Below, piece after piece: positions 7,745-59,586 of a stretch of 64,000 nucleotides of DNA. The notes under the pieces are model-generated. The model was given only the letters and a program-made list of their open reading frames with translations. It had not been told where the DNA came from and ran no database searches. Source of the stretch: Planctomycetaceae bacterium (GTDB lineage Bacteria > Planctomycetota > Planctomycetia > Planctomycetales > Planctomycetaceae); contig JBGTSJ010000007.1 in assembly GCA_041940305.1 (NCBI GenBank), forward strand, positions 1 through 64,000, written 5' to 3'. Position numbers and translations under genes: made by a program. Positions within the stretch are counted from its first letter, which is position 1. Each line of letters begins with the position of its first letter.

Positions 7745-7825
7745 GGCCACGGATGACGCGGATTGGACGGATTCACGCAGATCAGATCCGCGTAAATCCG
7801 TCCAATCCGCGTCATCTGCGGCCCC
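7745..7825. repeat. Family-1 palindromic element, copy A, 81 bp
   Basis: GGCCACGGATGACGCGGATTGGACGGATT-CACGCAGATCAGATCCGCGTA-AATCCGTCCAATCCGCGTCATCTGCGGCCCC, a near-perfect hairpin about 30 bp long between yqiJ-like and flotillin. Confidence 0.9.
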
Positions 7826-10496: not shown

Positions 10497-10564
10497 CGCA
10501 GATGACGCGGGTTCTCGCTGATCCGCGAAAATCCGCCAGATCCGCGCCATCCGCGGTCCCCCCT
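10486..10564. repeat. Family-1 palindromic element, copy C (right boundary of GxxExxY cassette 1)
   Basis: ACCACGGATGACGCAGATGACGCGGGTTCTCGCTGATCCGCGAAAATCCGCCAGATCCGCGCCATCCGCGGTCCCCCC. Confidence 0.9.
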
Positions 10565-16204: not shown

Positions 16205-16340
16205 GGGGGCCGCGGATCAGCGCGGATCGCTAAGCCAAGCTGTAAGTCCAGCCGTGTTGACAACACCTGAGCTGCAAATCGAGGAGGGACCTGGCGGCGC
16301 CCGGAATCCGCGCGAATCCGCCCATTCCGCGTCATCCGCG
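16205..16340. repeat. Family-1 palindromic element, copy D, 136 bp with a roughly 65-bp non-palindromic core
   Basis: Arms GGGGGCCGCGGATCAGCGCGGATCGC and GGAATCCGCGCGAATCCGCCCATTCCGCGTCATCCGCGGCCCCCCC. It lies between the giant ATPase stop and the GGDEF gene. Confidence 0.9.
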
Positions 16341-17168
16341 GCCCCCCTTTCCCGCCCCGTGTGGCTCCTGCTCGTCATCGAAGCCGCACTCGTCACGGCT
16401 TGCACCGCCCTCCTGGGCACACTGGCCGGTCTCCCTCTCGTTGCCGTCGCGCTCTGCGCCCCGCAGATCGTCGCCGCCGCCTGGATCGCCGGGACCCGCC
16501 CCGCACTGGTGCTGACGTTCGGCTCCGCATGCGGCTGGTATCTTCCGGCCATTTCGTACCGGGGAGTTGACCACGCGGCCGTCGATCTGCCATCAGCCGT
16601 GATCGGCACCGCGGTCCTCATCGCCTTCACGCTGCTGGTCCAGAAGTGGAAGGAGTCCATCCGCCGCGCCCATGAAGCGGCCGAAACGGACCCACTGACC
16701 GGTCTGCTCAATCGCCGCGGCTTCCTGGCGCGCGTCGAAGCCGAACGCAATCGCAGTCAGCGGAGCGGTGCACCGCTCGCCGTCGCCTTCCTCGACTGCG
16801 ACCGCTTCAAGGAGCTCAACGACACCCGCGGCCATCAGACGGGAGACCGCCTGCTGATCGCGACCAGCGAAGTGCTGCGGGCGAACGTCCGCAACTACGA
16901 CAGCGTGGCCCGGCTCGGAGGCGACGAATTCGCCGTGCTCTTGCCGGATGTCGAAGAGGCCGGCGCCTGTGCCGCCTCCGACCGTCTGCTCACGGCGCTG
17001 CACGCGGAGATGACCCGGCAAGGATGGCCCGTCACCTTCAGTATCGGCGTCGCCGTCTTCGCGAGGCCGCAGGCGACGACCGAGATGATCGCCGCGGCCG
17101 ACGCCGCGATGTACGAAATCAAACGCTCCGGCCGAGCCGCCGTCCGGGTCACCGTCATCAATAGCTGA
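16254..17168 (+). CDS. Membrane-anchored GGDEF-domain diguanylate cyclase; the real start is probably GTG near 16361
   Basis: 2-3 TM helices (WLLLVIEAALVTACTALLGTLAGLPLVAVALCA...) are followed by a GGDEF domain with DPLTGLLNRRGF, the active-site RLGGDEFAVLL and the I-site-like LLIATSEV. The first 35 codons of the ORF are a translation of palindromic repeat 16205-16340. Confidence 0.82.
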   Translation: MLTTPELQIEEGPGGARNPRESAHSASSAAPLSRPVWLLLVIEAALVTACTALLGTLAGLPLVAVALCAPQIVAAAWIAGTRPALVLTFGSACGWYLPAISYRGVDHAAVDLPSAVIGTAVLIAFTLLVQKWKESIRRAHEAAETDPLTGLLNRRGFLARVEAERNRSQRSGAPLAVAFLDCDRFKELNDTRGHQTGDRLLIATSEVLRANVRNYDSVARLGGDEFAVLLPDVEEAGACAASDRLLTALHAEMTRQGWPVTFSIGVAVFARPQATTEMIAAADAAMYEIKRSGRAAVRVTVINS

Positions 17169-22411: not shown

Positions 22412-22440
22412 TCGACCGCTCCCTGCCGGTCGCGGCTCTT
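22412..22440. repeat. Family-3 half-copy, intergenic
   Basis: CGACCGCTCCCTGCCGGTCGCGGCTC matches the reverse complement of the family-3 left arm (CGGGCCGCTCCCTTCCGGTCGCGGCTC). Confidence 0.55.
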
Positions 22441-29407: not shown

Positions 29408-31222
29408 TCAGCGGCTCTGCGTCAGAACTCCTTCCGACTGAGTAGCCCGCCGTCCCCCCAACTCGGGCGATGCCGCCACGTCGTCCTGCAGTGCTTCCGC
29501 CGCGGCCCGCAGGACGTCCAGTTCGTTCACGGCGGCCCGCGCCTCTGCACATGCTCGTTCGACGTCCGGGAAGAGGCCGACCGCCAGTTGACGTTGCACC
29601 AGTTCTCCTGCGAGCGCGTGCACTTCCTGCTTGAGACCGCGGCGGAGGCGGCGGACGAAGGCCATCAGGAGGAGGGCGGACCAGAGGAGCAGGAAGAGGA
29701 TGGCGGGCCAGTAGAAGTCGGAGGTGAGCAGAGGCTGGCCGTCGAGCCAGGAGTCGACGAAGAAGTTCCGGCCGACGCGGTAGAGGATGAAGCCGAGGTA
29801 CAGGGTGAACGCGATCTCGTAGAACGCCCGCACCCACCATTTGGAGTTCCGCTCCGCGAGGCGGCCGATGAGGTCGTCGATGCGGCGGCCGGCGTCGCCG
29901 AGGAAGTCCTGCTCGACGTCCGCCGCGCGGCCGCGGAGCTGCGTCAGCGAATGGCCGCCCCCCAGCGACAGGCCGGCCGAGCGGATGTGACCCTGGATCA
30001 CTAGTTCCGTCTCACGGAGCAATGAGTCATCAAGGCAGAACGCGCCTTCCAGTTTCTCTTCGGCTGTGCGCTCGTCCCGCTTGCTCGTCAGCCAGCGGCT
30101 CCCCTGCACGGCCCCGACGAGCGCCATCTGGGCCGCACTCCGGGCGCGATACAGGCTGAACGACGTCAGCAGCGCTCCCAGCCCCTGCCACACGCGCAGC
30201 AGGGCCGAGAACGGGCTGAACCCCCACGTGTCGGCGACGGCCGCCATCAGCCGCCGCTCCCACAGATGACGGCTGCCGAGCAGCTCCCGCTGCAGCTTCG
30301 TCGCCAGCTTCTCGCGGATCGCTCCCTGCTGATGCGCGAGCGCCGTCTCCAGCGGCACCAGGTCGTCCACCCGCGCCGACAGCGTACGGTCGCAGCGCTC
30401 CAGCGATCCGCACAACAGGTCCACCACGTTCGCGCGGCGGATCCGCATGCGTTCTGAGGCCGCGAGTTGCGTGGTGAGCAGGTCCTGCAGTCGGGCCAGG
30501 TCGCCGCTCGGCCGCTGTCCGGCCTGCTGCTCCTTAAGGCCGCGGACGGAGTCGATGAAGAACACATCCGGAATCTCGTAATGCTCGCGGAGCTGTCGCC
30601 GCCAGTCTTCGCGGATGTCCTCATCGAGGTCGGCGTGCGTCTGCACGAACACCAGCCGGCAGCCGGCTGCGGCCTGCCCCAGCTCATCGGCGACACGAGC
30701 GGAGCGGTACTTCTGCTGTGTCGAGACATACACCAGCACGTCGCAGTAGGGGAGCAGTGCGTGCAGCCGGGCGAGATTGCTGCCGGCGGTCTCGGCCTCG
30801 TTCGTATCCGGATCGGGACAATCCAGAATCACCAGGTCCCGCAGCACATCCGTCTCGCGGCGGACGACGTCGAAGTCCTCCAGCGGCAGACCGAGGGCCT
30901 CCAGGTGCGTCTTGGGGTGGGCGATGAGGATCGGCTTCGTCGTCGTGGGGCGTTCGCGCCCGGTGCGCGTGCACTCCTCGCCGACGATCGCATTCACCAG
31001 CGAACTCTTCCCCGTTCCCGTCCCGCCAAACGTGGCCGCCACGATGGGCGCCTCCAGCCGCACGCGCAAAGCATCCACTCGCGACAACGTTCGCCCCACC
31101 AGCGCCTGCGCTTCCTTGAGCGGTTGCCACGCCGTCTCGCGCCGCGACCACTCGGTGGCGCGCGCCGTCAACGCATCCATCCGCGCCAGCATCTCCAACT
31201 GAATCAACTGCGGTTCGGACAT
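29408..31222 (-). CDS. Membrane-anchored dynamin-like P-loop GTPase, paralog 1
   Basis: P-loop ATFGGTGTGKSSLVNAIVG. Switch-II-like ILDCPDPD. VFVQTHADLDED is G4-like. Two C-terminal TM helices (...WPAILFLLLWSALLLMAFV). The start at ATG 31222 (MSEPQLIQLEML) lies just after a leader motif. Confidence 0.68.
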   Translation of the reverse strand: MSEPQLIQLEMLARMDALTARATEWSRRETAWQPLKEAQALVGRTLSRVDALRVRLEAPIVAATFGGTGTGKSSLVNAIVGEECTRTGRERPTTTKPILIAHPKTHLEALGLPLEDFDVVRRETDVLRDLVILDCPDPDTNEAETAGSNLARLHALLPYCDVLVYVSTQQKYRSARVADELGQAAAGCRLVFVQTHADLDEDIREDWRRQLREHYEIPDVFFIDSVRGLKEQQAGQRPSGDLARLQDLLTTQLAASERMRIRRANVVDLLCGSLERCDRTLSARVDDLVPLETALAHQQGAIREKLATKLQRELLGSRHLWERRLMAAVADTWGFSPFSALLRVWQGLGALLTSFSLYRARSAAQMALVGAVQGSRWLTSKRDERTAEEKLEGAFCLDDSLLRETELVIQGHIRSAGLSLGGGHSLTQLRGRAADVEQDFLGDAGRRIDDLIGRLAERNSKWWVRAFYEIAFTLYLGFILYRVGRNFFVDSWLDGQPLLTSDFYWPAILFLLLWSALLLMAFVRRLRRGLKQEVHALAGELVQRQLAVGLFPDVERACAEARAAVNELDVLRAAAEALQDDVAASPELGGRRATQSEGVLTQSR

Positions 31223-31236
31223 GTGACGGAGAGATT

Positions 31237-31266
31237 GAACAGGAGGAAACAGAGGGAACGGAGGAG
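31237..31266 (-). promoter_or_regulatory. Solo family-4 motif in the leader of GTPase paralog 1; CU-rich on the coding strand, 15-45 nt upstream of the AUG
   Basis: On the + strand it reads GAACAGGAGGAAACAGAGGGAACGGAGGAG. The mRNA reads CUCCUCCGUUCCCUCUGUUUCCUCCUGUUC...AUG. Confidence 0.75.
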
Positions 31267-31286
31267 CAATACGTCGGCGACTCAAT

Positions 31287-31634
31287 TCAGTTTAGCCCCG
31301 GTCCATCGGACGGGGCTTCTATTCCAGTCATGTCGGTTGCGATCGAACCTCGACGCCTAATCCCGATGAATCCCCCGATCGATCCGATCAACCCTCCGAC
31401 CAGCGCGGCCATTGAGAATGCCGTGACCGTATCGAGTGAAACTCGAAACAGACTTCGCCGCATCATGTGCAGCGCATCGATTACCGTCATCTCGGGGCGG
31501 CGAGTCAACACTCCAATCAGCGTCCCGATGAGAAAGAGCACGCAGATCCCAAGTACTGCGCCAATCACCAGATAACGCAGTGAGCGACTTCGGTCGAAAG
31601 TAGCGGGCATTTCAATGCGCTCAGACATGCACAT
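31287..31634 (-). CDS. Small integral membrane protein of 115 aa with 3 predicted TM helices
   Basis: Hydrophobic segments LVIGAVLGICVLFLIGTLIGVL and AFSMAALVGGLIGSIGGFIGI. Its stop abuts the start region of GTPase paralog 1. Confidence 0.5.
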   Translation of the reverse strand: MCMSERIEMPATFDRSRSLRYLVIGAVLGICVLFLIGTLIGVLTRRPEMTVIDALHMMRRSLFRVSLDTVTAFSMAALVGGLIGSIGGFIGIRRRGSIATDMTGIEAPSDGPGLN

Positions 31635-31775
31635 CGGACGTAGGTTGCGACATCATCCAGTTTGTCGTCCTCACATCAACAATCGCAATCCCGAATCTCT
31701 CTTCGTTCCCTTGGCGGCCTTCTGTAACCGCCTTTCTTTGTCCTCCTCTGTGCCACCGTGTCTTTGTGTCAGCCT

Positions 31776-32672
31776 TCACGCCAGCGCCACCAGCACGGCG
31801 ATCAGCAGCAGCACCGCTCCCGTCAGCCGGAACGCCAGCGTCCGCGTCGAGTGACGACCCTCCGGGCTCCGCGCCAGCCGTCCCAGCCACCACGCCAGCA
31901 GCACCGACCACAACCCGCGCAGCGCGTACACGATGTTCACTCGCGTCGCGTCCCCGAAGCGGCCCAGCGAGTACGACATGCTCACCGCCTGCGTCGCCAT
32001 CAGCAGCGACGTCACCGCCAGCGGCCACGCGGCCTCCATCTCCCGTACGCGCGACGGCCGGTCGGACCACGGCAGCAGGCCGCACGAGATCAGCCCCATG
32101 CACACGAACATCGTCGCCAGAAACGGCGCCGCCCCGTGCCTGCGGCCGTAGATCTGCAGGGCGATGTCGAACAGCGAGAGCGCGGCCGCCGCGATGATCG
32201 CCAGTCCGATCGAAACCGCGACCCGCCGCGGCGACACCTTATGTCCGGCCGGCGCCGCACCGACCTGGATGACACCGACTCCCATCGCCGCCAGCACCGA
32301 CGCAATCCACACCGGCACGCCGATTGGCGTGTCGGTCAGCCACGCGCCAAGCGCCGCGACCATGATGATCTTCACTCCCAGCACCGGTGTCGCGAGAGAG
32401 ACGTCCCCGTACTGGAACGCCAGGAACGTGCACAACTGCCCGATCACGAACAGCGATCCGACCGCCGCCGCAAGGCCCCATTCGGCCGTCGGCAGAAACT
32501 CGCCGCGCGCAGCACCGATGCTGCCCCACATCGCCGCCAGGCAGATGTTGGAGTAAGCCGCGTTGGAAAACGGACTGACCCCCCGCACGCCCGCGGCCTT
32601 GGAGGTCATGGCGGCGAACACGAAGACGATGCTGGAGAACAGCGGCAGCAGGAGGTGGGCGGAATTGGACAA
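31776..32672 (-). CDS. DMT-superfamily (EamA-like) transporter
   Basis: 298 aa, about 10 TM helices, duplicated EamA-like halves. Confidence 0.65.
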   Translation of the reverse strand: MSNSAHLLLPLFSSIVFVFAAMTSKAAGVRGVSPFSNAAYSNICLAAMWGSIGAARGEFLPTAEWGLAAAVGSLFVIGQLCTFLAFQYGDVSLATPVLGVKIIMVAALGAWLTDTPIGVPVWIASVLAAMGVGVIQVGAAPAGHKVSPRRVAVSIGLAIIAAAALSLFDIALQIYGRRHGAAPFLATMFVCMGLISCGLLPWSDRPSRVREMEAAWPLAVTSLLMATQAVSMSYSLGRFGDATRVNIVYALRGLWSVLLAWWLGRLARSPEGRHSTRTLAFRLTGAVLLLIAVLVALA

Positions 32673-32903
32673 TTCGGCAACCAGACGTCGTCTCTCCGGA
32701 ATTCAAGAATCAACAAGCGTGAACAGCGCGTCCCGTCCCCGACGTTCATCCCGCATGCTCGGGAGTCGGAGAGCGGCCGTAAAAACAGGTTCGCGCCATT
32801 CCGCCAGTTGGGGCGTCCTTCATGGACTACTCCCTGCGTCTGGGCGCCTGCGCGTCAGTGTTCCGAGGCGGCGTCGCGCTTTGCTGCTTTCGTTCTTCCC
32901 TGT

Positions 32904-34853
32904 TCAGCCCTTCGCCGACAGCAGGCCTCGCAACTCCCGAATCGCCCCGTCCACCTCGCGGTACGCCCCCGACTCAGGCAACCCAGCCGCCCGCTGAATC
33001 TCCTCTCCCAGCGTCCCCAGCAGTTCCTCATTGAGCAGCCCCCACAGCCACGCCCCGCGCCGCGCCGTAAACGCCGCGTGCAGTTGCCGCAGCTTGGCTT
33101 CGACATAACCCGACCCCGTCGCGGCTCCTTCGCTGATTACGGTCTCTCCCACCGCCGCCGTGATCGTTCCCCCCAGCACGTCGCTCGCCACGTGCATCGC
33201 CCCGGTCGCCGCAAAGTCCGGCAGCGGAATCCCGCTGATGAACAGCACCACGCTGGTCACCGGCCGGGCCGCCGCCGCCGCCATATCCAGCCGCCTCACC
33301 ATGTTGAAATGCCGCGGACTCTCCTCCCGAAAGTTCGACAACTGTCGCCGCACTACGTCTTCCAGTTCCGCATCCAGATTCACCGCGCGATGCGCCGCTT
33401 CAACTTTCGACAGCAGCGCACTCCGCGACGTCCCGCTCAACAGTCGTTCCAGCCGCTCACGCAGCACCGAGTTCCCCATCTCCGACACGAACGCCAGTCG
33501 TTCATAGATCCGCTCGACCGTCGTCAGGATCGCCGACCACTCCTGCCGGCGGTACGCCTCCCACGGCGACTCCGGCTTCCCCTGGATCACATCCCGCGCC
33601 GCCTTCACCGGCCAGATGATCCCCTGCCCGACGACGTTGTAAAACCCGTGCACCTTCGCCGACCACCCCTCCCGCTGCCCGCGCCACCAGTTGCGGACCT
33701 CGCCGATCAGCACCGCATTTGGCACCGGCGGCCACGCCGATACCCGCTCCGCCTGATGCGGCAGCAGCATCTCCGCCGCCGACCGGAACTCCCGCGAAGC
33801 CGCCGCCACCTCCGCCAGATACCCCGGCGCACCATCCGGCCGCACCACCCGCTCCAGCGCTCCGCGCAACGCCCGCAGTTTCACATCGGCAAACCGCAAC
33901 CGCGAAAGGTCCGCCATAATATTCCGCGCCGCCCCATCCGCATCCCCCCTCTCCCCGCCACGCCGCTCCCCACTCTCATTCCGCTCCACGCGGGGAGAGG
34001 GGCCGGGGGTGAGGGGCAACTCACCGTCGGCCGCGATCCTCGTTGAGTCGCCGCTAAGCGGTGTTGAGTCGCCAAACGCCCGCTCATAAAAGGGCAGTCG
34101 CAACCCCTCCGCCCCCCGACGGTCATTCGGCGCCACATACAACCATTCGGGCCTCACCCCCGTCTCGCGCATAAACGTCTCCAGCCAACGCGGCCAGAAC
34201 TCCTCATCCTCCGGCAGCAGGCACTGGTTGAACAGCACCACCACCCCCTTGTCTTCCGCCGCCGCATGCCGGAAGAACTCCTTCACCGCCGCGTCGTTGT
34301 ATTTCTGCTGCGTCAGCACCGCGATCAACAGGTCCGCGCACTGCCGGATATGATCCGCCCGCTCCCAGTTAATCCGCGCATCGCTGTCCACATCGGGGGT
34401 GTCCAGCACCAGCAGGTTCTCCGGCGTCGCATCGCTCTCCCGCCAGTAGAGGCGGTGGGCATCCGTCTCATCGAGCGCCGCCTCCGCCCGCTCCCACGGA
34501 ATCAACTCGAACCCCGGAAACACCGCCGCCAGGTCGTGTCGCTCCGCAAACCCCCGCGGCACGATGCACACCGGATGCTTCGTCCCCGAGGCCAGCGGAC
34601 TCGAAGCGCTCGCCTTCTCCCCGGCGATGTGGTTGAACACCACGCTCTTGCCGATGTTCGTCCCCCCGACGACCGCCACCACCAGGTAGGCATCATCGGT
34701 CAACTGCGGAATCAGCTTCCGCTCCAGCAGCTCAAACCACTCCCGCCCCGCCAGCCCCCGCACCCCCGCACCCCGGCTCTCCTCCTCCACCCGCAAGAGC
34801 GCATCCCGCAACCCCCGCACCGCCTCAGCAAACTCATCAAATGCGGCTGGCAT
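32904..34853 (-). CDS. Membrane-anchored dynamin-like P-loop GTPase, paralog 2
   Basis: P-loop VVGGTNIGKSVVFNHIAG. LLVLDTPDVDS. The start at ATG 34853 (MPAAFDEFAEAV) is preferred because the 28 upstream codons translate palindromic repeat E. A 72-bp family-2 palindrome is in-frame at 33945-34016. Confidence 0.68.
   Translation of the reverse strand: MPAAFDEFAEAVRGLRDALLRVEEESRGAGVRGLAGREWFELLERKLIPQLTDDAYLVVAVVGGTNIGKSVVFNHIAGEKASASSPLASGTKHPVCIVPRGFAERHDLAAVFPGFELIPWERAEAALDETDAHRLYWRESDATPENLLVLDTPDVDSDARINWERADHIRQCADLLIAVLTQQKYNDAAVKEFFRHAAAEDKGVVVLFNQCLLPEDEEFWPRWLETFMRETGVRPEWLYVAPNDRRGAEGLRLPFYERAFGDSTPLSGDSTRIAADGELPLTPGPSPRVERNESGERRGGERGDADGAARNIMADLSRLRFADVKLRALRGALERVVRPDGAPGYLAEVAAASREFRSAAEMLLPHQAERVSAWPPVPNAVLIGEVRNWWRGQREGWSAKVHGFYNVVGQGIIWPVKAARDVIQGKPESPWEAYRRQEWSAILTTVERIYERLAFVSEMGNSVLRERLERLLSGTSRSALLSKVEAAHRAVNLDAELEDVVRRQLSNFREESPRHFNMVRRLDMAAAAARPVTSVVLFISGIPLPDFAATGAMHVASDVLGGTITAAVGETVISEGAATGSGYVEAKLRQLHAAFTARRGAWLWGLLNEELLGTLGEEIQRAAGLPESGAYREVDGAIRELRGLLSAKG
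33945..34016. repeat. Family-2 palindromic element P4, in-frame inside GTPase paralog 2
   Basis: CCCCCCTCTCCCC-(38 bp)-GGGGAGAGGGGCCGGGGGTGAGGGG. The right arm is an exact reverse complement of P2's left arm. It encodes PLTPGPSPRVERNESGERRGGERGDADGAARN. Confidence 0.85.
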
Positions 34854-34863
34854 GAGGCACGAA

Positions 34864-35094
34864 GGGGGTACGCAGATGACGCAGATGCAGAGGATTGACG
34901 CAGATGCTGCGCAGGTCTTGAAGGACGGCAGAAACACTAATAGCCGCTAATCTACGCTAATTCCTGCATGAGTGTCGATTAGCGGTGATTAGCGTTCCCC
35001 TCTTCGCTTTTTTTTCCATCCCGTCGTTCGCTGTCCGCCGTCACCTCTTGAAATCCGCGTCAATCCGCCCCATCCGCGTCATCCGCGGCCCCCC
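34864..35094. repeat. Family-1 palindromic element, copy E, 231 bp, with nested internal inverted repeats
   Basis: Arms GGGGGTACGCAGATGACGCAGATGCAGAGGATTGACGCAGATGC and GAAATCCGCGTCAATCCGCCCCATCCGCGTCATCCGCGGCCCCCC. The core carries CCGCTAATC...GATTAGCGG inverted repeats. It overlaps the last 11 codons of the PVC dehydrogenase gene. Confidence 0.9.
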
Positions 35095-38000
35095 TTCCCT
35101 CCACCCCCAGCGACTCGAGGTACGCCAACAGGTCGCGGAACTCCTGCACCGTCATCCGCTCCCACAGTTTCTCCGGCATCACCGACACCCGCTGCGGCAC
35201 CCGCTCCTCGATCTCATACGTCGAGATCTCCGTCGTCCGCCCCTCGCTGTCCCCCAGCACTGTCCGCCCCTCGTTCTCATGCACGATCATCCCCGTATGC
35301 ACCACGCCGTCCGTGGTCAGCATGTTCCACGTCGTAAACTGCGGCGACACGTCCTTGCTGGGCTCCAGGATCGAATCGATCAGCTTCTCCCGCGTAAAGC
35401 TCCGCCCCACATAAGATAAATCCGGCCCCACCCGCCCCCCGCGCCCTTCAACGGTGTGGCACTTGTAACAACCGGGCCCGTTGGGGTGATAGAACACGCG
35501 GCGACCGGAGGCGACTGGATCAATGCCGGTACTCGAGCGAAGCTCCTCGTAATCGGAGGTTACCGGCAACAGCTCGGCCTTCCAGACTTCGATACGCTGA
35601 GGACGTTTGCTCCATGCCTCCTCATACATGTTGAAGCGAGCGTCATCCGCTGGCGCTGCGAGATAAAGCTGCTCCAGCCACTCCTGCAGGCTCCATGGAT
35701 TGCCGGAGTAGGCGTTCAACGAGCCTGCCACTTCGTCGCGAATTCGCTCATCAGATCGCGAGAGCGGCCGGAGTGAGCGAATCGCCGCCATTGCGAAATC
35801 GAAGTCCGAGCGCAGGAACTCCGTCAGCGCGGCCGTGGCTGGCTGATTGCCGCCGCCTTGAGCCGCGATCTTGGATAAGCCGAGCATGGCTTCTTCCACC
35901 AGAGCTGAGTATCGCGAGCGGGCCAGGCTCAGTTCAGCAAACTCGGCTTCGCTCAGTTCATCAATGGCTGCGTCGCTGAGACCGGATTCGTCGAACGGAT
36001 CCGGCTGCTTCGCTACCTCAATCAATAGCCCCTCCACTTCTTTGAGCGGCGACTCGCACAGCGACCGTACCGTCTCCAGCCGCAGATCAAAGTCGTCGCT
36101 CGCCAGCAACGCTTTCCACACGTCGATCGTGAGTTGCGGATCATCCGCCTCCACCAGCCGCAGCGCCTGCACCTTCACCGCATCCGGCGTCTCGGCATTC
36201 GTCAGCAGCGGCACAACATATTTCCCGATCGGCGCCTGCTCAAACTCCCGCGGACTCCGCCCATCCAGCATGTCCAGCGCCGCGATCGTCGCCAGAAACA
36301 ACTCCGTCGTCATCGGCTCGCTGGTGAGCACCCCCTCCACCTGCGGCCGCAATTCGGAAAGCCCCTCTTCCGCCGCCCACTGGACCGCGATGCGTCGGAC
36401 CTCGGGATCAGTATTAGCAATTGCGATCCGCAGAAACTCGTCGTCCTCTGCAAACGCGCGCCGCACCGCCAGCACCAAGACACATCGTGATGCAGACGAG
36501 ATCTCTCCAAGTCGCCGCCTCACAATTTCATCGCCGAACGTACGAGGTTCTCGATTCGCAATCGCCATTCGAAAGTAGATCCTGAGTTCCTCCTTATCCC
36601 GGGCGAGCGAGTCCACGAGGGCCGATGCCAGATTCTGAGGAATCTGCTCACGCTGTAGCTGATGAATCCTGAGAGTGCGCGCCTGCTCAAGTGGATGGCC
36701 GCCGTTGGAAAAGAACGCGGCGACGCTTCGCGATTCCCATGATTCGTACTTATCTGGCAACGTAGCGTTCCTCGGCCAGAGGAGCATGTAGTTCCAGTCG
36801 CGGTAATCCCGCACAGGACATTGAGGCACGCGACCGATGACTCTCATCATAGCGGTGCGCACTTCGTCCAGGGGCCAATGGATCACATTGGACTCTGTGC
36901 CGGTAAACCCGTAGTCAAATTCCTCAATTGGAACTTGAACGGCCTGCCAGGCAGCTTCGACTCGAGCGCGTGCGCTTAACGAACCATCATTCAGGATGTC
37001 GCTCAGCTTCTCTCGACCGTCGGCAGTTCCTCGCAATTGTTTCGCCGCGAGGCGTCGCATCGTCAACTGCCGTGAATTGAGCATTTTCGCAAGTGTTCCA
37101 ACTTCCAGTTCCGCGGATCCTCCGTCGCCACCGGAATCTTCCTCAGGCCGGGTCGGCGGCGGCTTCCCGCTAAACGGCGGATCGACGGCGCTGATCCGCC
37201 ACACCCGCCCATGCCCGTGCAGGTTGTAGTCCCGCTTCACCCAGTCGGTGCAATACAGGCTGCCGTCCGGAGCAAGCGCCAGTCCCACCGGTCGGAAATC
37301 CTCACCCCCCACGACCAGCGGCTCCGCAATCGACTCGAACGACGCACCCCGCGGCTGCAGCCGGAACCGGTCGATCCGGTGATCCCCCCAACTCGTCACC
37401 AGCAGGTTGCCCAGATACTCCTCCGGAAACGCATCGTGCTCATACGCCACAATCCCGCTCGGAGCTTCCCCCGTCCCTGCCACCATCGGCAGCGTCCCCG
37501 GGATCTCCCCGTTCCAGGCGGTAAACGGATGCTGCCCCTTGCGGCCGTTGCGGAACTTGTACCCGTAGTCCCCCCCTTCGATGACATGCAGCAACCGGCA
37601 CGGCGGCCTGCTGTCCGGATCGTTATCAACCGTGAACAACCGCCCGAACGCATCCACGCACGAAGCATGCGGATTCCAGAACCCGGTCGCCCAGTGGGAG
37701 AGCTGCGTCCCATCCGGCCGCATGCGGTAGATGTTGCCCCCCTCGCCACCGCCGGTGAGGGCCAATGAGCCGCGACCGGAAGGGAGCGGCCCGTCGGTCG
37801 CACCGGCGTCGTCGTCAATTTCTAGGCCGCTTCCCGCCGGGCGCGGCTCTTTGAGCGACTCTCGACCAACAAGCGTGTAGTCCTCGCCCAGATTCTCCCC
37901 GAACCCGAAGTACATCCACCCCAGCGCATCAAACGCAAACCCCGCCAGCCCGTTATGCGGATAGTTCCCCTTCGTCTCCAGCCGCGCCAGCACCGTCTGC

Positions 38001-38548
38001 CGATCGCACACATCATCCCCGTCCAGGTCCTCCAGCAGCAGAATCTCCCGCCGCGTCGCCAGAAACACCTGCAGCGGGTGCTGAGAGCCGCGACCGGCAG
38101 GGAGCGGTTCGGCGGTGGGATCATCGTCCATCTCCGGGCCGCTTCCCGCCGCGCGCGGCTCCTTCCCATCTCCATCGACCATCGTCTCTCGACCATCGAC
38201 CCTCACCGCGTCCATCCACACTGGCCGCACCGCCACGCTCATCGCATGCGTGAACCCGTCCGTGAATACCCGCACGTCATCCGCTCGCCCGTCCCCGTCG
38301 GTGTCCGCCATCACCAGCAGCCGGTCGCTCGGATGCCCGTCATATCCCTCCGGCCGGAAGTGCGTATTGCTCTCAATGGCCCACACGCGCCCCCGCGCAT
38401 CCACATCCATCCCCGTCGGCGTCCGAATCTGAGGCTGCTCCGCAAACAGCTCGATCCGAATCCGCGCATCCACCGATCGCGGCCCTTCCTCTGCCGAGCT
38501 GACCGAGCACGCACACAACACCAGTCCGACGACGCAAAGTCTGAGCAT
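35060..38548 (-). CDS. PVC-type membrane-bound dehydrogenase domain plus HEAT repeats plus C-terminal CxxCH haem-binding domain protein (TIGR02604/TIGR02603-like)
   Basis: Signal peptide MLRLCVVGLVLCACSVSSA. An N-terminal beta-propeller dehydrogenase-like region, HEAT-like repeats and a C-terminal CYKCH haem-c motif. The last 10 aa (GAADDADGAD*) are encoded inside palindromic repeat E. Confidence 0.85.
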   Translation of the reverse strand: MLRLCVVGLVLCACSVSSAEEGPRSVDARIRIELFAEQPQIRTPTGMDVDARGRVWAIESNTHFRPEGYDGHPSDRLLVMADTDGDGRADDVRVFTDGFTHAMSVAVRPVWMDAVRVDGRETMVDGDGKEPRAAGSGPEMDDDPTAEPLPAGRGSQHPLQVFLATRREILLLEDLDGDDVCDRQTVLARLETKGNYPHNGLAGFAFDALGWMYFGFGENLGEDYTLVGRESLKEPRPAGSGLEIDDDAGATDGPLPSGRGSLALTGGGEGGNIYRMRPDGTQLSHWATGFWNPHASCVDAFGRLFTVDNDPDSRPPCRLLHVIEGGDYGYKFRNGRKGQHPFTAWNGEIPGTLPMVAGTGEAPSGIVAYEHDAFPEEYLGNLLVTSWGDHRIDRFRLQPRGASFESIAEPLVVGGEDFRPVGLALAPDGSLYCTDWVKRDYNLHGHGRVWRISAVDPPFSGKPPPTRPEEDSGGDGGSAELEVGTLAKMLNSRQLTMRRLAAKQLRGTADGREKLSDILNDGSLSARARVEAAWQAVQVPIEEFDYGFTGTESNVIHWPLDEVRTAMMRVIGRVPQCPVRDYRDWNYMLLWPRNATLPDKYESWESRSVAAFFSNGGHPLEQARTLRIHQLQREQIPQNLASALVDSLARDKEELRIYFRMAIANREPRTFGDEIVRRRLGEISSASRCVLVLAVRRAFAEDDEFLRIAIANTDPEVRRIAVQWAAEEGLSELRPQVEGVLTSEPMTTELFLATIAALDMLDGRSPREFEQAPIGKYVVPLLTNAETPDAVKVQALRLVEADDPQLTIDVWKALLASDDFDLRLETVRSLCESPLKEVEGLLIEVAKQPDPFDESGLSDAAIDELSEAEFAELSLARSRYSALVEEAMLGLSKIAAQGGGNQPATAALTEFLRSDFDFAMAAIRSLRPLSRSDERIRDEVAGSLNAYSGNPWSLQEWLEQLYLAAPADDARFNMYEEAWSKRPQRIEVWKAELLPVTSDYEELRSSTGIDPVASGRRVFYHPNGPGCYKCHTVEGRGGRVGPDLSYVGRSFTREKLIDSILEPSKDVSPQFTTWNMLTTDGVVHTGMIVHENEGRTVLGDSEGRTTEISTYEIEERVPQRVSVMPEKLWERMTVQEFRDLLAYLESLGVEGRGAADDADGAD
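37767..37849. repeat. Family-3 palindromic element, copy 1, in-frame inside the PVC dehydrogenase gene
   Basis: GAGCCGCGACCGGAAGGGAGCGGCCCG-(31 bp)-GGCCGCTTCCCGCCGGGCGCGGCTC. It encodes [28 protein letters not shown] on the minus strand. Confidence 0.85.
38084..38162. repeat. Family-3 palindromic element, copy 2, in-frame inside the PVC dehydrogenase gene
   Basis: GAGCCGCGACCGGCAGGGAGCGGTTCGGCGG-(22 bp)-CCGGGCCGCTTCCCGCCGCGCGCGGCTCC. It encodes [30 protein letters not shown] and lies 317 bp from copy 1 in the same orientation. Confidence 0.85.
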
Positions 38549-38644
38549 CCGTCCCCTCCCAACACGTTTAGCCGCGACTCGAAGAGCGCGCCCCCCTCTA
38601 AGGTACCTCCAACACGTTAAACAAGGTCCCCACAATCCCCTCCC

Positions 38645-44217: not shown

Positions 44218-45924
44218 ATGAAAATGGGCAACAACCGGGCGCGGAGACCGTCCGCGCCGGCTTCCACTTGCCTGCAAGACGGGACGGCTGTCATGAGCGA
44301 GTTCCCCCAGTCGCAGCGGCTGCTTCAGCGGGTCATCTGGCGGATGTACGCCGTGCGGCTTGCCCGGCGCGTGTTCGTGTGGTTCGTCGTGGCGGCCACG
44401 CTGTATGCGATCGCGCTGCTCACCGCCCGGCTGACCGGGTTGATCACGGACGTTTTCGCGCCCGAGACGCTGTGGTTCATCCCCGCGGCCGCGGTGGTGC
44501 TGGGACTGCTCTCGACCCGCCGCCCGAGCCTGGAAGACGCGGCCCGCCGTACTGATACCGGCCAGGGAACGAAGGACCTGTTCCTCACGCTGACGATGCT
44601 TGACCGGTGCGCGGGCGAGTACAAGCCGCTGGTGGGCCGCGATGCCGAGCAGCGTGCCAAGGCACTGCACGCCGAGCAGGTTGTTCCGTTCGACTGGCAG
44701 AAGCCGTCGCTGCTGGGAGGGGTCGTTGCGCCGGCGACCATCGGCCTGCTGGCGCTGGGGATCTTCTTCCTGCCGTCGCTCGATCCGTTCGCGGTCCAGG
44801 CGCAGGCGAAAGAGGAAGCGACGCGCGCCGAGCGGCTGGCCGAGTCCCGCAAGGAGACGGAGGTCCGCCGCGCCCAGCTGACGCAGCGCAAGGAAACCGA
44901 CGACGAGAACTCGGAAGAGGTCGCGCAGGCGCTGGAGCGGCTGCAGGCGGACTTCCGCAAGATGCGCAAGGACCAGAAGATCCCCAACGCCGAGCGGCTG
45001 GCCGTGAATCAGAAGGACCTTGGCGAGAAGTGGCGGAAGCTCAACGCCGAGCAGCTCAAGCAGCTGATGAACTCGGAGAACCTCGACCAGCGGTTTGGCG
45101 GCGAGGACGCCGAGCAGTTCCGCGAATGGCAGAAGGAGCTGCAGCAGGGTTCGGCGGACGCGCTGGAGCAGGCGATGGAGGAACTGAAGGAAGACCTGCA
45201 GCAGCTGGCGAAGACGGATGATCCGGTCGAGCGCAGCGAGATGAAGCGGAAGATCGAGAAGCAGCTGCGCGAGATGTCGGAGTTCGCGGCGAACGAGGCC
45301 GGTTCGCCGCAGCTGGCGGCCGCGCTGCAGCGGGCGATGGACCAGATGGAGGCCATGCAGAACAGCGAATCCGAAGCGCTGGAGGCGGAAGCGCTGGCGG
45401 CGATCCAGGAGTCGATGGAGCTGGCGCAGATGGAGGCGCAGGAACTGGCTCAGGCCGCGCGCGACCTCCAGTCGCTGGAGGAGGCCCTCAATCTGATCAG
45501 CATGGCCAAGCAGCTGAACGCTGAGGAGATGCTGGACGGGGAGAGCGCCGAGGCCGCACAGTCACTGGCCGATTACGCCGAGATGTATGCGCAGATGATG
45601 GCCGACATGCAGGGGATGGGCGAACTCGGCGGCGAAGGATTCGGCGAGGGGGGCGAGGCGCCGGAGGATGAAACGGTCGAGACCGAGTTCGTCGACGAGA
45701 CTTCGAAGTCGGCGATTCAGAAGGGGAAGATCCTGCTGTCGATGAAGACGAAGGGGCTCAGCGACACGGGAGAGGCGGTGAAGGAGTACCGGGACGCCAT
45801 TGAAGACGTGAAGCAGGGAGCGGCCGAGGCCATCGAGCAGGAGGAAATTCCTCCCGGGTACATCGAGGCGATCCAGAAGTACTTCGACAAGATCGAGACC
45901 GTTGATGCCGCCGAGCCGCAGTAG
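44218..45924 (+). CDS. Membrane-anchored coiled-coil protein of unknown function
   Basis: Two N-terminal TM helices (VFVWFVVAATLYAIALLTARL and WFIPAAAVVLGLLST). A long E/Q/A/K-rich coiled coil follows, then an acidic C-terminus. Confidence 0.6.
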   Translation: MKMGNNRARRPSAPASTCLQDGTAVMSEFPQSQRLLQRVIWRMYAVRLARRVFVWFVVAATLYAIALLTARLTGLITDVFAPETLWFIPAAAVVLGLLSTRRPSLEDAARRTDTGQGTKDLFLTLTMLDRCAGEYKPLVGRDAEQRAKALHAEQVVPFDWQKPSLLGGVVAPATIGLLALGIFFLPSLDPFAVQAQAKEEATRAERLAESRKETEVRRAQLTQRKETDDENSEEVAQALERLQADFRKMRKDQKIPNAERLAVNQKDLGEKWRKLNAEQLKQLMNSENLDQRFGGEDAEQFREWQKELQQGSADALEQAMEELKEDLQQLAKTDDPVERSEMKRKIEKQLREMSEFAANEAGSPQLAAALQRAMDQMEAMQNSESEALEAEALAAIQESMELAQMEAQELAQAARDLQSLEEALNLISMAKQLNAEEMLDGESAEAAQSLADYAEMYAQMMADMQGMGELGGEGFGEGGEAPEDETVETEFVDETSKSAIQKGKILLSMKTKGLSDTGEAVKEYRDAIEDVKQGAAEAIEQEEIPPGYIEAIQKYFDKIETVDAAEPQ

Positions 45925-45965
45925 GGGCCGCGGATGACGCGGATCGGGGGGATTGACGCAGATCT
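45925..45965. repeat. Family-1 half-copy F (left arm only)
   Basis: GGGGCCGCGGATGACGCGGATCGGGGGGATTGACGCAGATC, located directly after the stop of the coiled-coil gene. No recognisable right arm is present. Confidence 0.8.
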
Positions 45966-47049: not shown

Positions 47050-48650
47050 GCCTGACGGCGGCCTGCGGTTGGACGCTCTGCCGCGCCGTGCTGGTCGCTC
47101 TCCTCGTCCTGCCCGCGGCCTGGGGACTGCGCAGCCGGCTGGACGGCATGCGTCCCGGACAGCGCACGCTCCTCTGGACGCTGCTGCTGACGGCGTTCTT
47201 CACTCCGGCCCTGCTGACCGGCTACGCCTACTCCAAGTGGTCGCTGGCGCTGATCCGCTATCCGCTGTGGAACGAAGCGCTGTACGCCGCCCTGCTCACG
47301 TTCCGGCTGATCCCTGTGGGCGGCATCATTCTGCAGTTCTGCCCCCCGCCGCCGCTTTCGCCGGAGGGACTGCACTGCGCGCGGCTGGCGGCGGAGCGAA
47401 GCGGCGGTCCGGTCCGGCTGCGGTTTCTGCTGCCGTTCGCGATGCGGGGCGAGATGCGGAATGCGCTGCCGGTGTTCTGCGTGGTGTGGCTGCTGGCGTT
47501 CCAGGAGTTCGAGACGGCGTCGCTGATGGGGACGGCATCGTGGACGGTCTGGCTATTCGATGCACAGGCCGGCGGGATCATCCTCGGAGAGTCGCTGGAC
47601 CGAGCACTGTTGCCGATGGCGTGCCAGCTGCTGGTGATTGGATTGTTCGCCGTGTTTGCACTGCAAAGCCGCCGGCTGCCGTCGGCGCGGCGGCGGGAAC
47701 CGGGGAGAGTGTCGCCGCTGCGGGACGCCGCGGCCTGGGGGGTCGCGGTCGCGGCGGCGGCCGTGGCGACCTTCATTCCCCTGATGCTCCTCGGGCGGGA
47801 TGCCGTACAGGGGATCTCCGGGATGTTGCGAAGCCGGGAGATGGTCCGTGAGATCGGGATTGCCGGGGCGTTTGGACTGGTCTCGGGACTGGCGGCGGCG
47901 GCACTGGCGTACGGAGTGCGGCGGGGAATGGATCGAGTGCGGGGGGCGCGAGCGACGGTTGGCGATGATGGCCTTCAGGTTGATCGCGGAGCGAAGACTG
48001 AAATGGCCCCTCAACCCCGGCCCCTCTCCCCGCATGAGGCGGCGTGGGGTGGCACGCTTGGCAGCGGGGAGAGGGGGGAAGCGAACGGAACGCGTTCTCT
48101 GCGGAACGCCGGGCCGGGATGGATCATGGCGTGTGTGGGGCTGGCGGCGATGCTGCCGGGTCTGCTGGGATCGCTGGTGGTGAGCCTGGTGGTGTTGCGG
48201 GCGTTCCAGTGGCCGGTGCTCAACACGTTGTACGACACGCCGCTCCCGGCCGTGGTGGCGCTGGTGTGGTACCTGCTGCCGCGTGCGGTGCTGCTGCAGC
48301 TACTGTTCGGCGCGCTCAGCCGGCAGTCGAATGCGCATGCGGCGGCGCTGCTGGCGCACTCGGCTTCGGTTCATCAGCGACGGGCCGGGGGGGAACTCGT
48401 CTGGCGATTGCGGTGGCGATACCAGTTCCTCGCGGCGGGGATCCTGTGCGTGTGGGGTTATCTGGAACTGACGCCGGTGGCGATCCTCGCGCCGCCCGGC
48501 ATGACGTCTGCGCCCGTGCGGCTGTACAACCTGATGCACTATGGCCGCAGTTACGTGGTGGCGGCGATGACGCTCGTCGCGATGGCGGTGCCGCCGGCGG
48601 TGCTGGTGGCGGCGGGAGGGGTCAGGCGGGTGTGGGCGGCAGTGCGGTGA
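47046..48650 (+). CDS. ABC transporter permease with two fused transmembrane domains, FbpB-like
   Basis: The GTG start overlaps the SBP stop (GTGA). About 12 TM segments in two halves. A 72-bp family-2 palindrome is in-frame in the inter-domain loop at 48007-48078. Confidence 0.78.
   Translation: MSLTAACGWTLCRAVLVALLVLPAAWGLRSRLDGMRPGQRTLLWTLLLTAFFTPALLTGYAYSKWSLALIRYPLWNEALYAALLTFRLIPVGGIILQFCPPPPLSPEGLHCARLAAERSGGPVRLRFLLPFAMRGEMRNALPVFCVVWLLAFQEFETASLMGTASWTVWLFDAQAGGIILGESLDRALLPMACQLLVIGLFAVFALQSRRLPSARRREPGRVSPLRDAAAWGVAVAAAAVATFIPLMLLGRDAVQGISGMLRSREMVREIGIAGAFGLVSGLAAAALAYGVRRGMDRVRGARATVGDDGLQVDRGAKTEMAPQPRPLSPHEAAWGGTLGSGERGEANGTRSLRNAGPGWIMACVGLAAMLPGLLGSLVVSLVVLRAFQWPVLNTLYDTPLPAVVALVWYLLPRAVLLQLLFGALSRQSNAHAAALLAHSASVHQRRAGGELVWRLRWRYQFLAAGILCVWGYLELTPVAILAPPGMTSAPVRLYNLMHYGRSYVVAAMTLVAMAVPPAVLVAAGGVRRVWAAVR
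48007..48078. repeat. Family-2 palindromic element P1, in-frame inside the ABC permease inter-domain loop
   Basis: CCCCTCAACCCCGGCCCCTCTCCCC-(35 bp)-GGGGAGAGGGGGG. It encodes MAPQPRPLSPHEAAWGGTLGSGERGEANGT. Confidence 0.85.
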
Positions 48651-49539: not shown

Positions 49540-49620
49540 CCCTCACCCCCGGCCCCTCTCCTGCGATGGTGCGGTACTGTCATTGACACTGTTCGCGCGG
49601 GAGAGGGGGGTACTTCATGC
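49540..49620. repeat. Family-2 palindromic element P2, intergenic
   Basis: CCCTCACCCCCGGCCCCTCTCC-(46 bp containing TTGACA)-GGGAGAGGGGGG, located upstream of the ABC ATPase gene. Confidence 0.85.
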
Positions 49621-59446: not shown

Positions 59447-59586
59447 GGCCGCGGATGACGCGGATCCGGCTGGTCTTCGCGGAGAACAAGAACGTCATGG
59501 ACCAGCGGTAATCGGCCGGCCACAAATCTCACCCCTGTCTGGATTCTGATCCGCGGAAATCCGCCTGATCCGCGTCATCCGCGGCC
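59447..59586. repeat. Family-1 palindromic element, copy H, 140 bp
   Basis: GGCCGCGGATGACGCGGATCCGGCTGGTCTTCGCGGAGAAC...GATTCTGATCCGCGGAAATCCGCCTGATCCGCGTCATCCGCGGCC. It lies between the batA-like stop and the next gene. Confidence 0.9.

Follow-up and report, generated by a model that had tools for sequence, protein, structure and literature searches.

Two predicted dynamin-like GTPases of a Planctomycetaceae bacterium carry a family-wide aspartate at the switch II glycine position

We analyzed a 64,000-nucleotide stretch of DNA from a Planctomycetaceae bacterium (GenBank assembly GCA_041940305.1, contig JBGTSJ010000007.1, positions 1 to 64,000), hereafter the window, which has a GC content of ~63% and which contains on its minus strand four co-oriented open reading frames (ORFs) coding for a GTPase (GTPase-B), an EamA/DMT-family transporter, a product of 115 amino acids and a second GTPase (GTPase-A). 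The base composition and all of the homologues indicate a member of the Planctomycetaceae. The two GTPases are our main subject. Both are predicted to adopt the fold of bacterial dynamin-like proteins (DLPs) of the BDLP/mitofusin class, and both have an Asp at the position where the G3 motif of the dynamin superfamily, DxxG, has its glycine. The four ORFs, in the order B to A, are as follows.

32904..34853, minus strand: GTPase-B, 649 amino acids; BDLP/mitofusin-like, without a clear transmembrane segment; start ATG at 34853
31776..32672, minus strand: EamA/DMT-family transporter, 298 amino acids; TTG start; lineage-specific neighbour
31287..31634, minus strand: small ORF of 115 amino acids; two hydrophobic segments; not conserved; gene status doubtful
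29408..31222, minus strand: GTPase-A, 604 amino acids; BDLP-like with a transmembrane hairpin; start ATG at 31222

A preliminary description of this DNA, made from the sequence alone, had two long co-oriented ORFs bracketing the DMT gene and the small ORF, and the ORF positions bear this out. The starts of both GTPases were set by comparing the N-termini of homologues, all of which have an equivalent start to ATG 31222 of GTPase-A (MSEPQL...) and to ATG 34853 of GTPase-B (MPAAF...). The mechanical ORFs reach further 5', to TTG 31285 for A and open to GTG 34937 for B. An earlier claim that GTPase-A is translationally coupled to the small ORF rests on TTG 31285 and is ruled out, because the homologue-backed start at ATG 31222 leaves a 64-nucleotide spacer after the small ORF stop codon so that the two do not overlap.

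The nucleotide-binding motifs of both proteins were located and followed through family alignments made with hmmalign (177 sequences for the A family and 119 for the B family), from which all column counts given here are taken.

34644..34667, minus strand: G1 P-loop of B, GGTNIGKS; N66 in 119/119, N74 (Lys+5) invariant
34386..34403, minus strand: switch II/G3 of B, DTPDVD in place of DxxG; D151, P153, D154 and D156 each in 119/119
34299..34313, minus strand: TQQKY motif of B after beta-4, common to A; T181-D187 (TQQKYND) invariant, 119/119
34218..34229, minus strand: G4 position of B, NQCL; N and Q invariant; without the guanine-specifying Asp
31004..31027, minus strand: G1 P-loop of A, GGTGTGKS; Thr at the third position; without the first K+-binding Asn
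30806..30823, minus strand: switch II/G3 of A, DCPDPD in place of DxxG; D134 in 175/177, P136 in 176/177, D137 in 173/177, D139 in 172/177
30707..30721, minus strand: TQQKY motif of A after beta-4; K171 in 169/177, Y172 in 174/177
30629..30640, minus strand: G4 of A, THAD (TKxD-like); T195 in 166/177, H196 in 151/177, D198 in 129/177; Asp partly conserved

The P-loops (GGTNIGKS and GGTGTGKS) and the replacement of DxxG by DxPD that had been noticed in both GTPases are thus exact. Across the families Asp occupies the G3 glycine position in 173/177 A sequences and 119/119 B sequences, which greatly exceeds what chance would give, and it is accompanied by a conserved Walker-B Asp (175/177 and 119/119), G3 Pro (176/177 and 119/119) and second Asp of DxPDxD (172/177 and 119/119). 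Apparent members of the A family without DxPD, such as the 'DLPLGE' returned by a regular-expression scan, are spurious, the hmmalign column being Asp in those same 173 sequences. The classical G3 consensus of the dynamin superfamily is DxxG (PMC4159319), and its replacement by DCPDPD in A and DTPDVD in B is clade-wide, with an almost invariant consensus of hhDxPDxD. The preliminary description had conceded that its observation would fall if DxPD were simply the norm for the family. It is literally the norm, yet it is not ordinary, because the dynamin superfamily uses the classical DxxG and this family deviates from it as a whole. The Gly-to-Asp deviation is therefore a trait of the family and not a peculiarity of this locus. 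In the AlphaFold2 (AF2) model of each protein the G3 motif lies at the C-terminal end of beta-3, right before the switch-II helix, which is where a Ras-like fold has DxxG; the strands that end at G3 span residues 130-134 in A and 147-151 in B, and in B a helix of residues 160-172 comes next.

Other parts of the nucleotide-binding site were also compared with what is expected of the dynamin superfamily. Both proteins have the G1 P-loop GxxxxGK[ST] together with a switch-I Thr, the switch-I/G2 segment reading RPTT in A and SGTKHP in B. There is little or no variation in either family at the Lys and Ser of the P-loop, the Thr of switch I and the Asp of Walker B. The G4 motif is less regular. An N/TKxD motif with a guanine-specifying Asp is a feature of the superfamily (PMC5084822), and this Asp is found in 129/177 (73%) of the A family and is missing in the B family (NQxx); the AF2 models place the G4 of A (THAD) and of B (NQCL) at the end of beta-5. 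A second difference between the two proteins concerns the two conserved Asn residues that define the K+-activated GTPases of the Era/EngA/MnmE/FeoB type (TEES) (PMC3466195). The complete signature, GxxNxGK[ST] plus an Asn at Lys+5, is present in B only (N66 and N74), and A has a Gly at the first position and keeps the second Asn alone (N77). At the third P-loop position, where Ser41 of dynamin holds the catalytic cation (PMC5084822), both A and B have Thr. The near-invariance of these catalytic motifs argues for selection on nucleotide chemistry, and the pattern of conservation argues for A and B probably being enzymatically active. Finally, both proteins carry TQQKY in the loop after beta-4, which we take to be, by position, the region of dynamin's trans-stabilising loop. 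Our literature search found no paper on the DxPDxD motif or its family, on a planctomycete dynamin, on a non-canonical dynamin G3 or on 'DTPD', and no experimental work on the family.

We assigned A and B to a protein class on the basis of their predicted folds. The AF2 models have a predicted local distance difference test (pLDDT) score of 79.6 for GTPase-A and 81.3 for GTPase-B, and Foldseek gave the Nostoc BDLP (2j68/2j69) as the top match to both (E 5.6e-12 for A and 7.9e-8 for B), followed by IniA, Cj-DLP1/2, MFN1/2, Fzo1, SynDLP and EHD in alignments of 650-780 columns. In both models a hairpin of N-terminal helices is followed by the G domain and then by a long helical neck and trunk, which ends in a tip and from which helices return to the G domain. 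This is the DLP layout and the architecture of the BDLP/mitofusin branch of the dynamin superfamily. This ranking and this layout lead us to assign GTPase-A and GTPase-B, as modelled, to the bacterial DLPs of the BDLP/mitofusin class, so that the dynamin-like character claimed for both in the preliminary description is upheld by the predicted fold. In regards to the membrane, the two proteins differ at the tip of the trunk.

29654..29839, minus strand: hydrophobic hairpin at the trunk tip of A, residues 462-523; hydropathy 1.22 and 2.32; helices of residues 462-493 and 501-548
33117..33257, minus strand: trunk tip of B, residues 533-579; Gly/Ala-rich, conserved glycines, low pLDDT, weakly hydrophobic (hydropathy maximum ~1.5)

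GTPase-A has hydrophobic segments at residues 462-484 and 505-523, after which ~80 residues come, and no segment of GTPase-B exceeds 1.6 in mean Kyte-Doolittle hydropathy. The preliminary description had given both GTPases C-terminal transmembrane helices and a membrane anchor; this applies to A alone, through the 462-523 hairpin. The trunk tip of B is a candidate for contact with a membrane or a partner. In a separate scan for anti-phage defence systems, PADLOC returned only sub-threshold P-loop matches (mad8, E 0.0012; LeoA, E 0.02), and this assignment was rejected.

The G domains of A and B are homologous to each other. BLASTP aligns them with 30% identity over 175 amino acids (E 2e-12), and a comparison of the two family alignments by hhalign gives a probability of 97.3% (E 2.6e-11) with G1, G3 and TQQKY in register. 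No similarity between A and B was detectable at the sequence level outside of the G domain. The earlier view of A and B as paralogues holds for the G domain. When clustered at 90% identity there are ~1,800 relatives per paralogue (1813 and 1778, similar counts that favour a pairing of the two), essentially all of which are from Planctomycetaceae/Planctomycetota, and a DNA-pattern scan located GTPase-A relatives in 505 species-level genomes. A profile search of 1.84 billion representatives gave 190 matches below 1e-30 and 1,276 below 1e-10, and the best 150 of the 3,660 representatives of this search were examined for the extent of the motif and the clade.

The most distant matches come from Candidatus Hydrogenedentota and make up a pair family of their own. 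The A-type proteins of this family have DTPDSD in 119/119 sequences and a G4 of the form TKAx with a variable fourth residue, TKAD being present in 18/119. Its B-type is represented by a contig from Logan (SRR28093593; locus L091, 5978-9453), where a distant B-type gene with GGTNTGKS, DTPDVD and a canonical NKAD G4 overlaps an A-type gene by 4 nucleotides; relatives of this A-type product (P0385) go under the names Candidatus Hydrogenedentes/Hydrogenedentota in their sources. Since DxPDxD is present in both the A- and B-types of Hydrogenedentota, the Gly-to-Asp change would be older than the A/B duplication and older than the split of the two phyla. Similarly, as the distant B-type protein keeps NKAD alongside DTPDVD, the change in G3 appears to have preceded the decay of G4. 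As a side observation, two metagenome-assembled genomes labelled 'Candidatus Kuenenia stuttgartiensis' (L060) and 'Rhodopirellula sp.' (L078) contain a B-then-A pair of the Planctomycetaceae type with an A protein 53% identical to that of the window; this points either to wrong labels or contamination of the bins or to an extension of the family into other planctomycete orders.

Gene order was surveyed in 80 related genome loci, 68 of which were informative and 12 of which were too short to tell. In 35/68 informative loci B is the gene immediately 5' of A, in the same orientation, and the two open frames often abut or overlap; in the other 33/68 it is missing from at least 2.5 kb upstream of A. 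Locus L005 has B then A with a gap of 100 nucleotides, its A-type product (P0004) being 72% identical to A, and the complete genomes of Planctomyces sp. SH-PL14 and Caulifigura coniformis each contain both genes megabases apart. No third partner gene is conserved around the B/A pair among the 80 loci, and no flanking gene is common to more than 12 of them. Bacterial DLPs are usually encoded as tandem pairs, for which heterotypic complexes have been proposed (PMC6104087, PMC4159319), and the recurrent B-then-A order fits this literature. Such pairing is typical of DLPs without being obligatory, and it is present here, with two ORFs separating B and A in the window. B directly upstream of A, often overlapping it or nearly so, is the commonest order and the ancestral one.

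Taking these results together, we think it likely that B and A constitute a heterotypic pair of BDLP/mitofusin-class DLPs from an uncharacterised clade that is found in Planctomycetaceae and, distantly, in Hydrogenedentota. In such a pair GTPase-A would be held in the cytoplasmic membrane by its hairpin and would recruit a peripheral GTPase-B to this membrane, where nucleotide-dependent dimerisation of the G domains, either homo- or heterotypic, would drive a conformational change of the helical scaffold. By analogy with Cj-DLP1/2, DynA, IniA/C and the mitofusins, the outcome may be membrane tethering, fusion, fission or repair. Both proteins would be active nucleoside triphosphatases (NTPases) with a cation-assisted mechanism. 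The backbone NH of the Asp that replaces the glycine may still contact the gamma-phosphate, and the Asp side chain, the second Asp and the TQQKY lysine may replace a canonical switch-II or trans-stabilising contact.

Several observations weigh against the reading of B and A as a heterotypic DLP pair. Neither protein has the G3 glycine. The G4 Asp is likewise missing in B and is only weakly conserved in A (129/177), which makes guanine specificity and hydrolysis uncertain. About half of the genomes have A and B at unlinked positions, and obligate heteromerisation is thus not implied. The profile classification that the preliminary description had proposed as a check gave a divided answer, with MMR_HSR1 above its cutoff and Pfam Dynamin_N below its cutoff of 27 (23.2 bits for A and 15.4 bits for B). 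A sequence search of the Protein Data Bank (PDB) with the family profiles and the B G domain matched ~40 residues of the P-loop and G2 of Der and Era. The AF2 models have predicted TM-scores of 0.62 and 0.75, a moderate confidence overall, and differences in conformation keep their TM-scores against DLP structures as low as 0.2-0.37. Finally, nucleotide binding, hydrolysis, an A-B interaction and membrane activity are all inferred for every member of the family.

Among the alternatives, one is a variant of the heterotypic DLP pair and does not exclude it, namely that A and B are dynamin-like NTPases that have changed their substrate or metal and use a nucleotide other than GTP, for example ATP as in EHD. 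The G4 Asp, which is absent in B (NQxx) and present in 73% of A, points in this direction, as does the presence of EHD ATPases among the structural matches. However, NKAD in the distant B-type protein and TKAD in 18/119 distant A-types suggest a guanine-binding ancestry, and G1 and G2 of B resemble those of the EngA/Era GTPases; on balance a switch away from GTP is possible but rather unlikely.

A second alternative takes the loss of the canonical motifs further and regards A and B as pseudo-GTPase scaffolds that have lost the GTP-driven switch or hydrolysis, and that serve as structural membrane-shaping or tethering factors with at most constitutive nucleotide binding. Virtually no member has the G3 glycine. 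B lacks the G4 Asp, A retains it in 129/177 sequences, and in the A-type of Hydrogenedentota it has given way to a variable fourth residue. There is also a documented precedent in the superfamily for a dynamin-related protein (DRP)-like pseudoenzyme (bioRxiv 10.1101/2023.10.03.560745). What speaks against such a loss is that the P-loop, switch-I Thr, Walker-B Asp, DxPDxD and TQQKY are all near-invariant, whereas pseudoenzymes usually let such positions drift, and that B keeps both Asn residues of the K+ site and its distant homologue keeps NKAD. We therefore regard scaffolds devoid of activity as improbable.

A bolder possibility, which we put forward as a long shot, is that the DxPDxD/TQQKY clade represents a mechanistically distinct branch of the dynamins where an acidic switch II, perhaps together with the TQQKY lysine or an extra cation, takes the place of the glycine-based gamma-phosphate sensor, and that the near-universal B/A pair constitutes a core fission/fusion machine in the FtsZ-less Planctomycetaceae. 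If true, then the B/A pair would act in budding, division or upkeep of the invaginated cytoplasmic membrane and would not be an accessory stress protein.

The close spacing and shared orientation of the ORFs in the window raise the further possibility of a four-gene module, where regulation or assembly of the DMT transporter and the mini-protein falls to the GTPases, and in the closest relative (L088, A 87% identical) an EamA orthologue with 92.6% amino acid identity also precedes A, with a 229-nucleotide spacer and without the small ORF. The middle gene is itself a plausible EamA/DMT family member, with a Pfam EamA score of 38.8 bits (cutoff 28.2) in two matched stretches and a multi-transmembrane profile of ~9-10 hydrophobic segments. 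However, the phylogenetic profiling that the preliminary description had called for shows that the cluster it treated as a unit is not conserved. A DMT gene or small ORF lies between or beside the pair in 0/80 related loci, the window alone having them between B and A. The EamA orthologue adjoins A only in L088-L090 and is absent from the other 80 loci. Locus L005, as described above, has B and A with no gene between them, and in L087, which has the closest relative of B (88% identical), B follows the same DUF7133 gene as in the window and is followed by a convergent PGM_PMM_I (phosphoglucomutase-family) gene, with neither DMT nor A downstream. The lack of any flanking gene in more than 12 of the 80 loci is also at odds with a module. 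From this comparison the DMT gene and the small ORF appear to be local insertions between B and A and not functional partners. A four-gene module is thus very improbable, being largely refuted by the comparative context, and the apparent operon is best regarded as a local accident.

The small ORF deserves separate mention. Its product had been described as a mini-protein with three transmembrane helices, and we find two hydrophobic segments. No homologue was found in any compared locus, including the closest relative L088. Its composition is atypical, with a GC content at third codon positions (GC3) of 0.61, where the other three cluster genes have 0.83-0.90, and a codon-usage score of ~0. Either it was acquired recently or it is not a gene at all. 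The spacer from the DMT gene to A in which it lies (31223-31775) has a GC3 of 0.61 and no counterpart in L088, which together suggest a recent insertion of foreign or non-coding DNA. In Planctomyces sp. SH-PL14 (L001, 9546-9875) a 109-amino acid ORF without a Pfam match lies directly upstream of GTPase-A; it has no detectable similarity to the 115-amino acid ORF of the window (phmmer E>1e-3), and the like size and position of the two appear coincidental. For annotation purposes the small ORF would need more evidence before it is accepted as a gene, and the look of a four-gene operon should be treated as accidental.

Finally, the idea that A and B are Era/EngA-type '50S ribosome-binding' GTPases that act in ribosome assembly and not on membranes has scarcely any likelihood, since, although MMR_HSR1 is the sole Pfam model above cutoff for these proteins (22.2 bits for A and 30.3 bits for B, cutoff 21.9), the best PDB sequence matches are Der and Era, and sources name some members '50S ribosome-binding GTPase', the likeness extends over no more than ~40 residues comprising the P-loop and G2, alignments of the full-length models with BDLP, mitofusin and IniA run to 650-780 columns, A has a transmembrane hairpin, and profile scans detect no KH or other RNA-binding domain in A or B. 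The same Pfam and NCBIfam scans found no second G domain, MnmE N-terminal domain or FeoB membrane domain in either protein, none of the NCBIfam equivalogs CrfC, HydF, Era, Der and DynA was reached (12-23 bits versus cutoffs of 116-950), and no alignment in the PDB sequence search with the A and B profiles continued through G3. The database names '50S ribosome-binding GTPase' and 'EcfA2' that are given to family members are not supported and are misleading.

We also recorded the surroundings of the cluster and the repeats in the window. GTPase-A is followed by a convergent gene for a 696-amino acid esterase, and the upstream neighbour of GTPase-B is a gene for a DUF7133/cytochrome-c protein of 1191 amino acids (35060-38635, minus strand). 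Two features near or within the B gene are repeat-related.

34855..35100, minus strand: long nested inverted repeat in the interval from the B start (34853) to the DUF7133 gene stop (35060); 45-nucleotide outer arms at 34861-34905 and 35053-35097
33939..34067, minus strand: disordered insertion of B, residues 263-305, 'GELPLTPGPSPRVERNESGERRGGERG'; surface loop with pLDDT <50; GC-rich repeat-like element in frame

The inverted repeat at 34855-35100 contains a second inner palindrome and has a predicted RNA fold of -133 kcal/mol (z -9.0). One outer arm overlaps the stop codon of the DUF7133 gene, and the region is ~86% conserved in L087. The repeat could be a terminator, an insulator or an element resembling a repetitive extragenic palindrome (REP) or a miniature inverted-repeat transposable element (MITE); no Rfam family reaches its gathering score in the window, this repeat included. 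Its ~40-nucleotide outer arm (ATCCGCGTCAATCCGCCCCATCCGCGTCATCCGCG...) recurs at ~7745-7825, 10521-10562, 16305-16349, 45924-45959 and 59447-59586 with 86-94% identity, which marks it as one of a family of repeats dispersed in this genome. Likewise, a ~86-nucleotide palindromic element occurs twice in frame within the 1191-amino acid gene (37767-37852 and 38085-38164), where it translates as 'KEPR(P/A)AGSG..DDD...PLP(S/A)GRGS', and its end also matches 22416-22438. The protein appears to tolerate these two copies, which resemble insertions of a palindromic repeat. The loop of B at residues 263-305 is an apparent in-frame insertion of a repeat element; its GC-rich core recurs at 48006-48033, at 49540-49561 and at an intergenic site in L087, and the longer loop is lineage-specific, being present only in the closest relatives (660-693 amino acids).

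Few bacterial DLPs have been characterised, and to our knowledge all of those that have been keep the classical DxxG switch II. What is new here is a DLP pair, as judged by fold and gene order, that departs clade-wide from DxxG, has a partly canonical G4 and adds the TQQKY signature. A large family spanning two phyla in which Asp is fixed at the glycine position and the rest of the catalytic apparatus is kept amounts to a natural experiment on gamma-phosphate sensing and on the triggering of hydrolysis in dynamin-type G domains. A and B are also candidate membrane-remodelling factors in Planctomycetes, a group for which little is understood of how membranes are organised and how cells divide without FtsZ. 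For GTPase specialists the finding is a modest surprise that poses a clean biochemical question, and there is so far no sign of an unusual biological role.

When compared with known systems, the closest resemblance is to BDLP1 of Nostoc punctiforme (2j68/2j69), which has in common with the two models the hairpin of N-terminal helices, the G domain and the helical neck and trunk, along with a tip that inserts into membranes, the putative role of the hairpin in A. It likewise lies in tandem with a second DLP gene (PMC4159319). The sequences are only 10-14% identical, however, and BDLP has DxxG where the present clade has DxPDxD plus TQQKY. Cj-DLP1 and Cj-DLP2 of Campylobacter jejuni (5owv) are two divergent DLPs that are encoded side by side in an operon and form a heterotypic complex that tethers membranes (PMC6104087). 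The structural match of Cj-DLP to A has an E value of 1.3e-9 and a TM-score of 0.36. The A-B complex would be a putative counterpart, its genes are unlinked in approximately half of the genomes, and its G3 and G4 are non-canonical. The mycobacterial IniA and IniC also constitute a tandem DLP pair, with IniA being among the top structural matches to A and B, and IniA is reported to mediate membrane fission (PMC6715688). IniA and IniC differ in having canonical motifs and in being part of the stress-inducible iniBAC operon, equivalent operon partners of which were not found beside the B/A pair. Mitofusin/Fzo1 is a eukaryotic fusogen of the outer mitochondrial membrane with canonical G motifs and with no sequence relationship to A and B beyond the G-domain fold.

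With the K+-activated TEES GTPases (EngA/Der, Era, MnmE and FeoB), GTPase-B shares GxxNxGKS and the Asn at Lys+5, a matching G2 (GTTRDP in these GTPases and SGTKHP in B) and an MMR_HSR1 score above cutoff. The TEES GTPases differ from B in having DxxG and NKxD, in lacking the long helical DLP scaffold and in acting on ribosomes, tRNA or iron transport. A last comparison is with the RGK small GTPases (Rad/Rem/Gem/Kir), which belong to the eukaryotic Ras superfamily, are unrelated to A and B and are not dynamin-like. They do, however, set a precedent: none of this family has a glycine-type G3, which reads DxWEx instead, and nucleotide is still bound.

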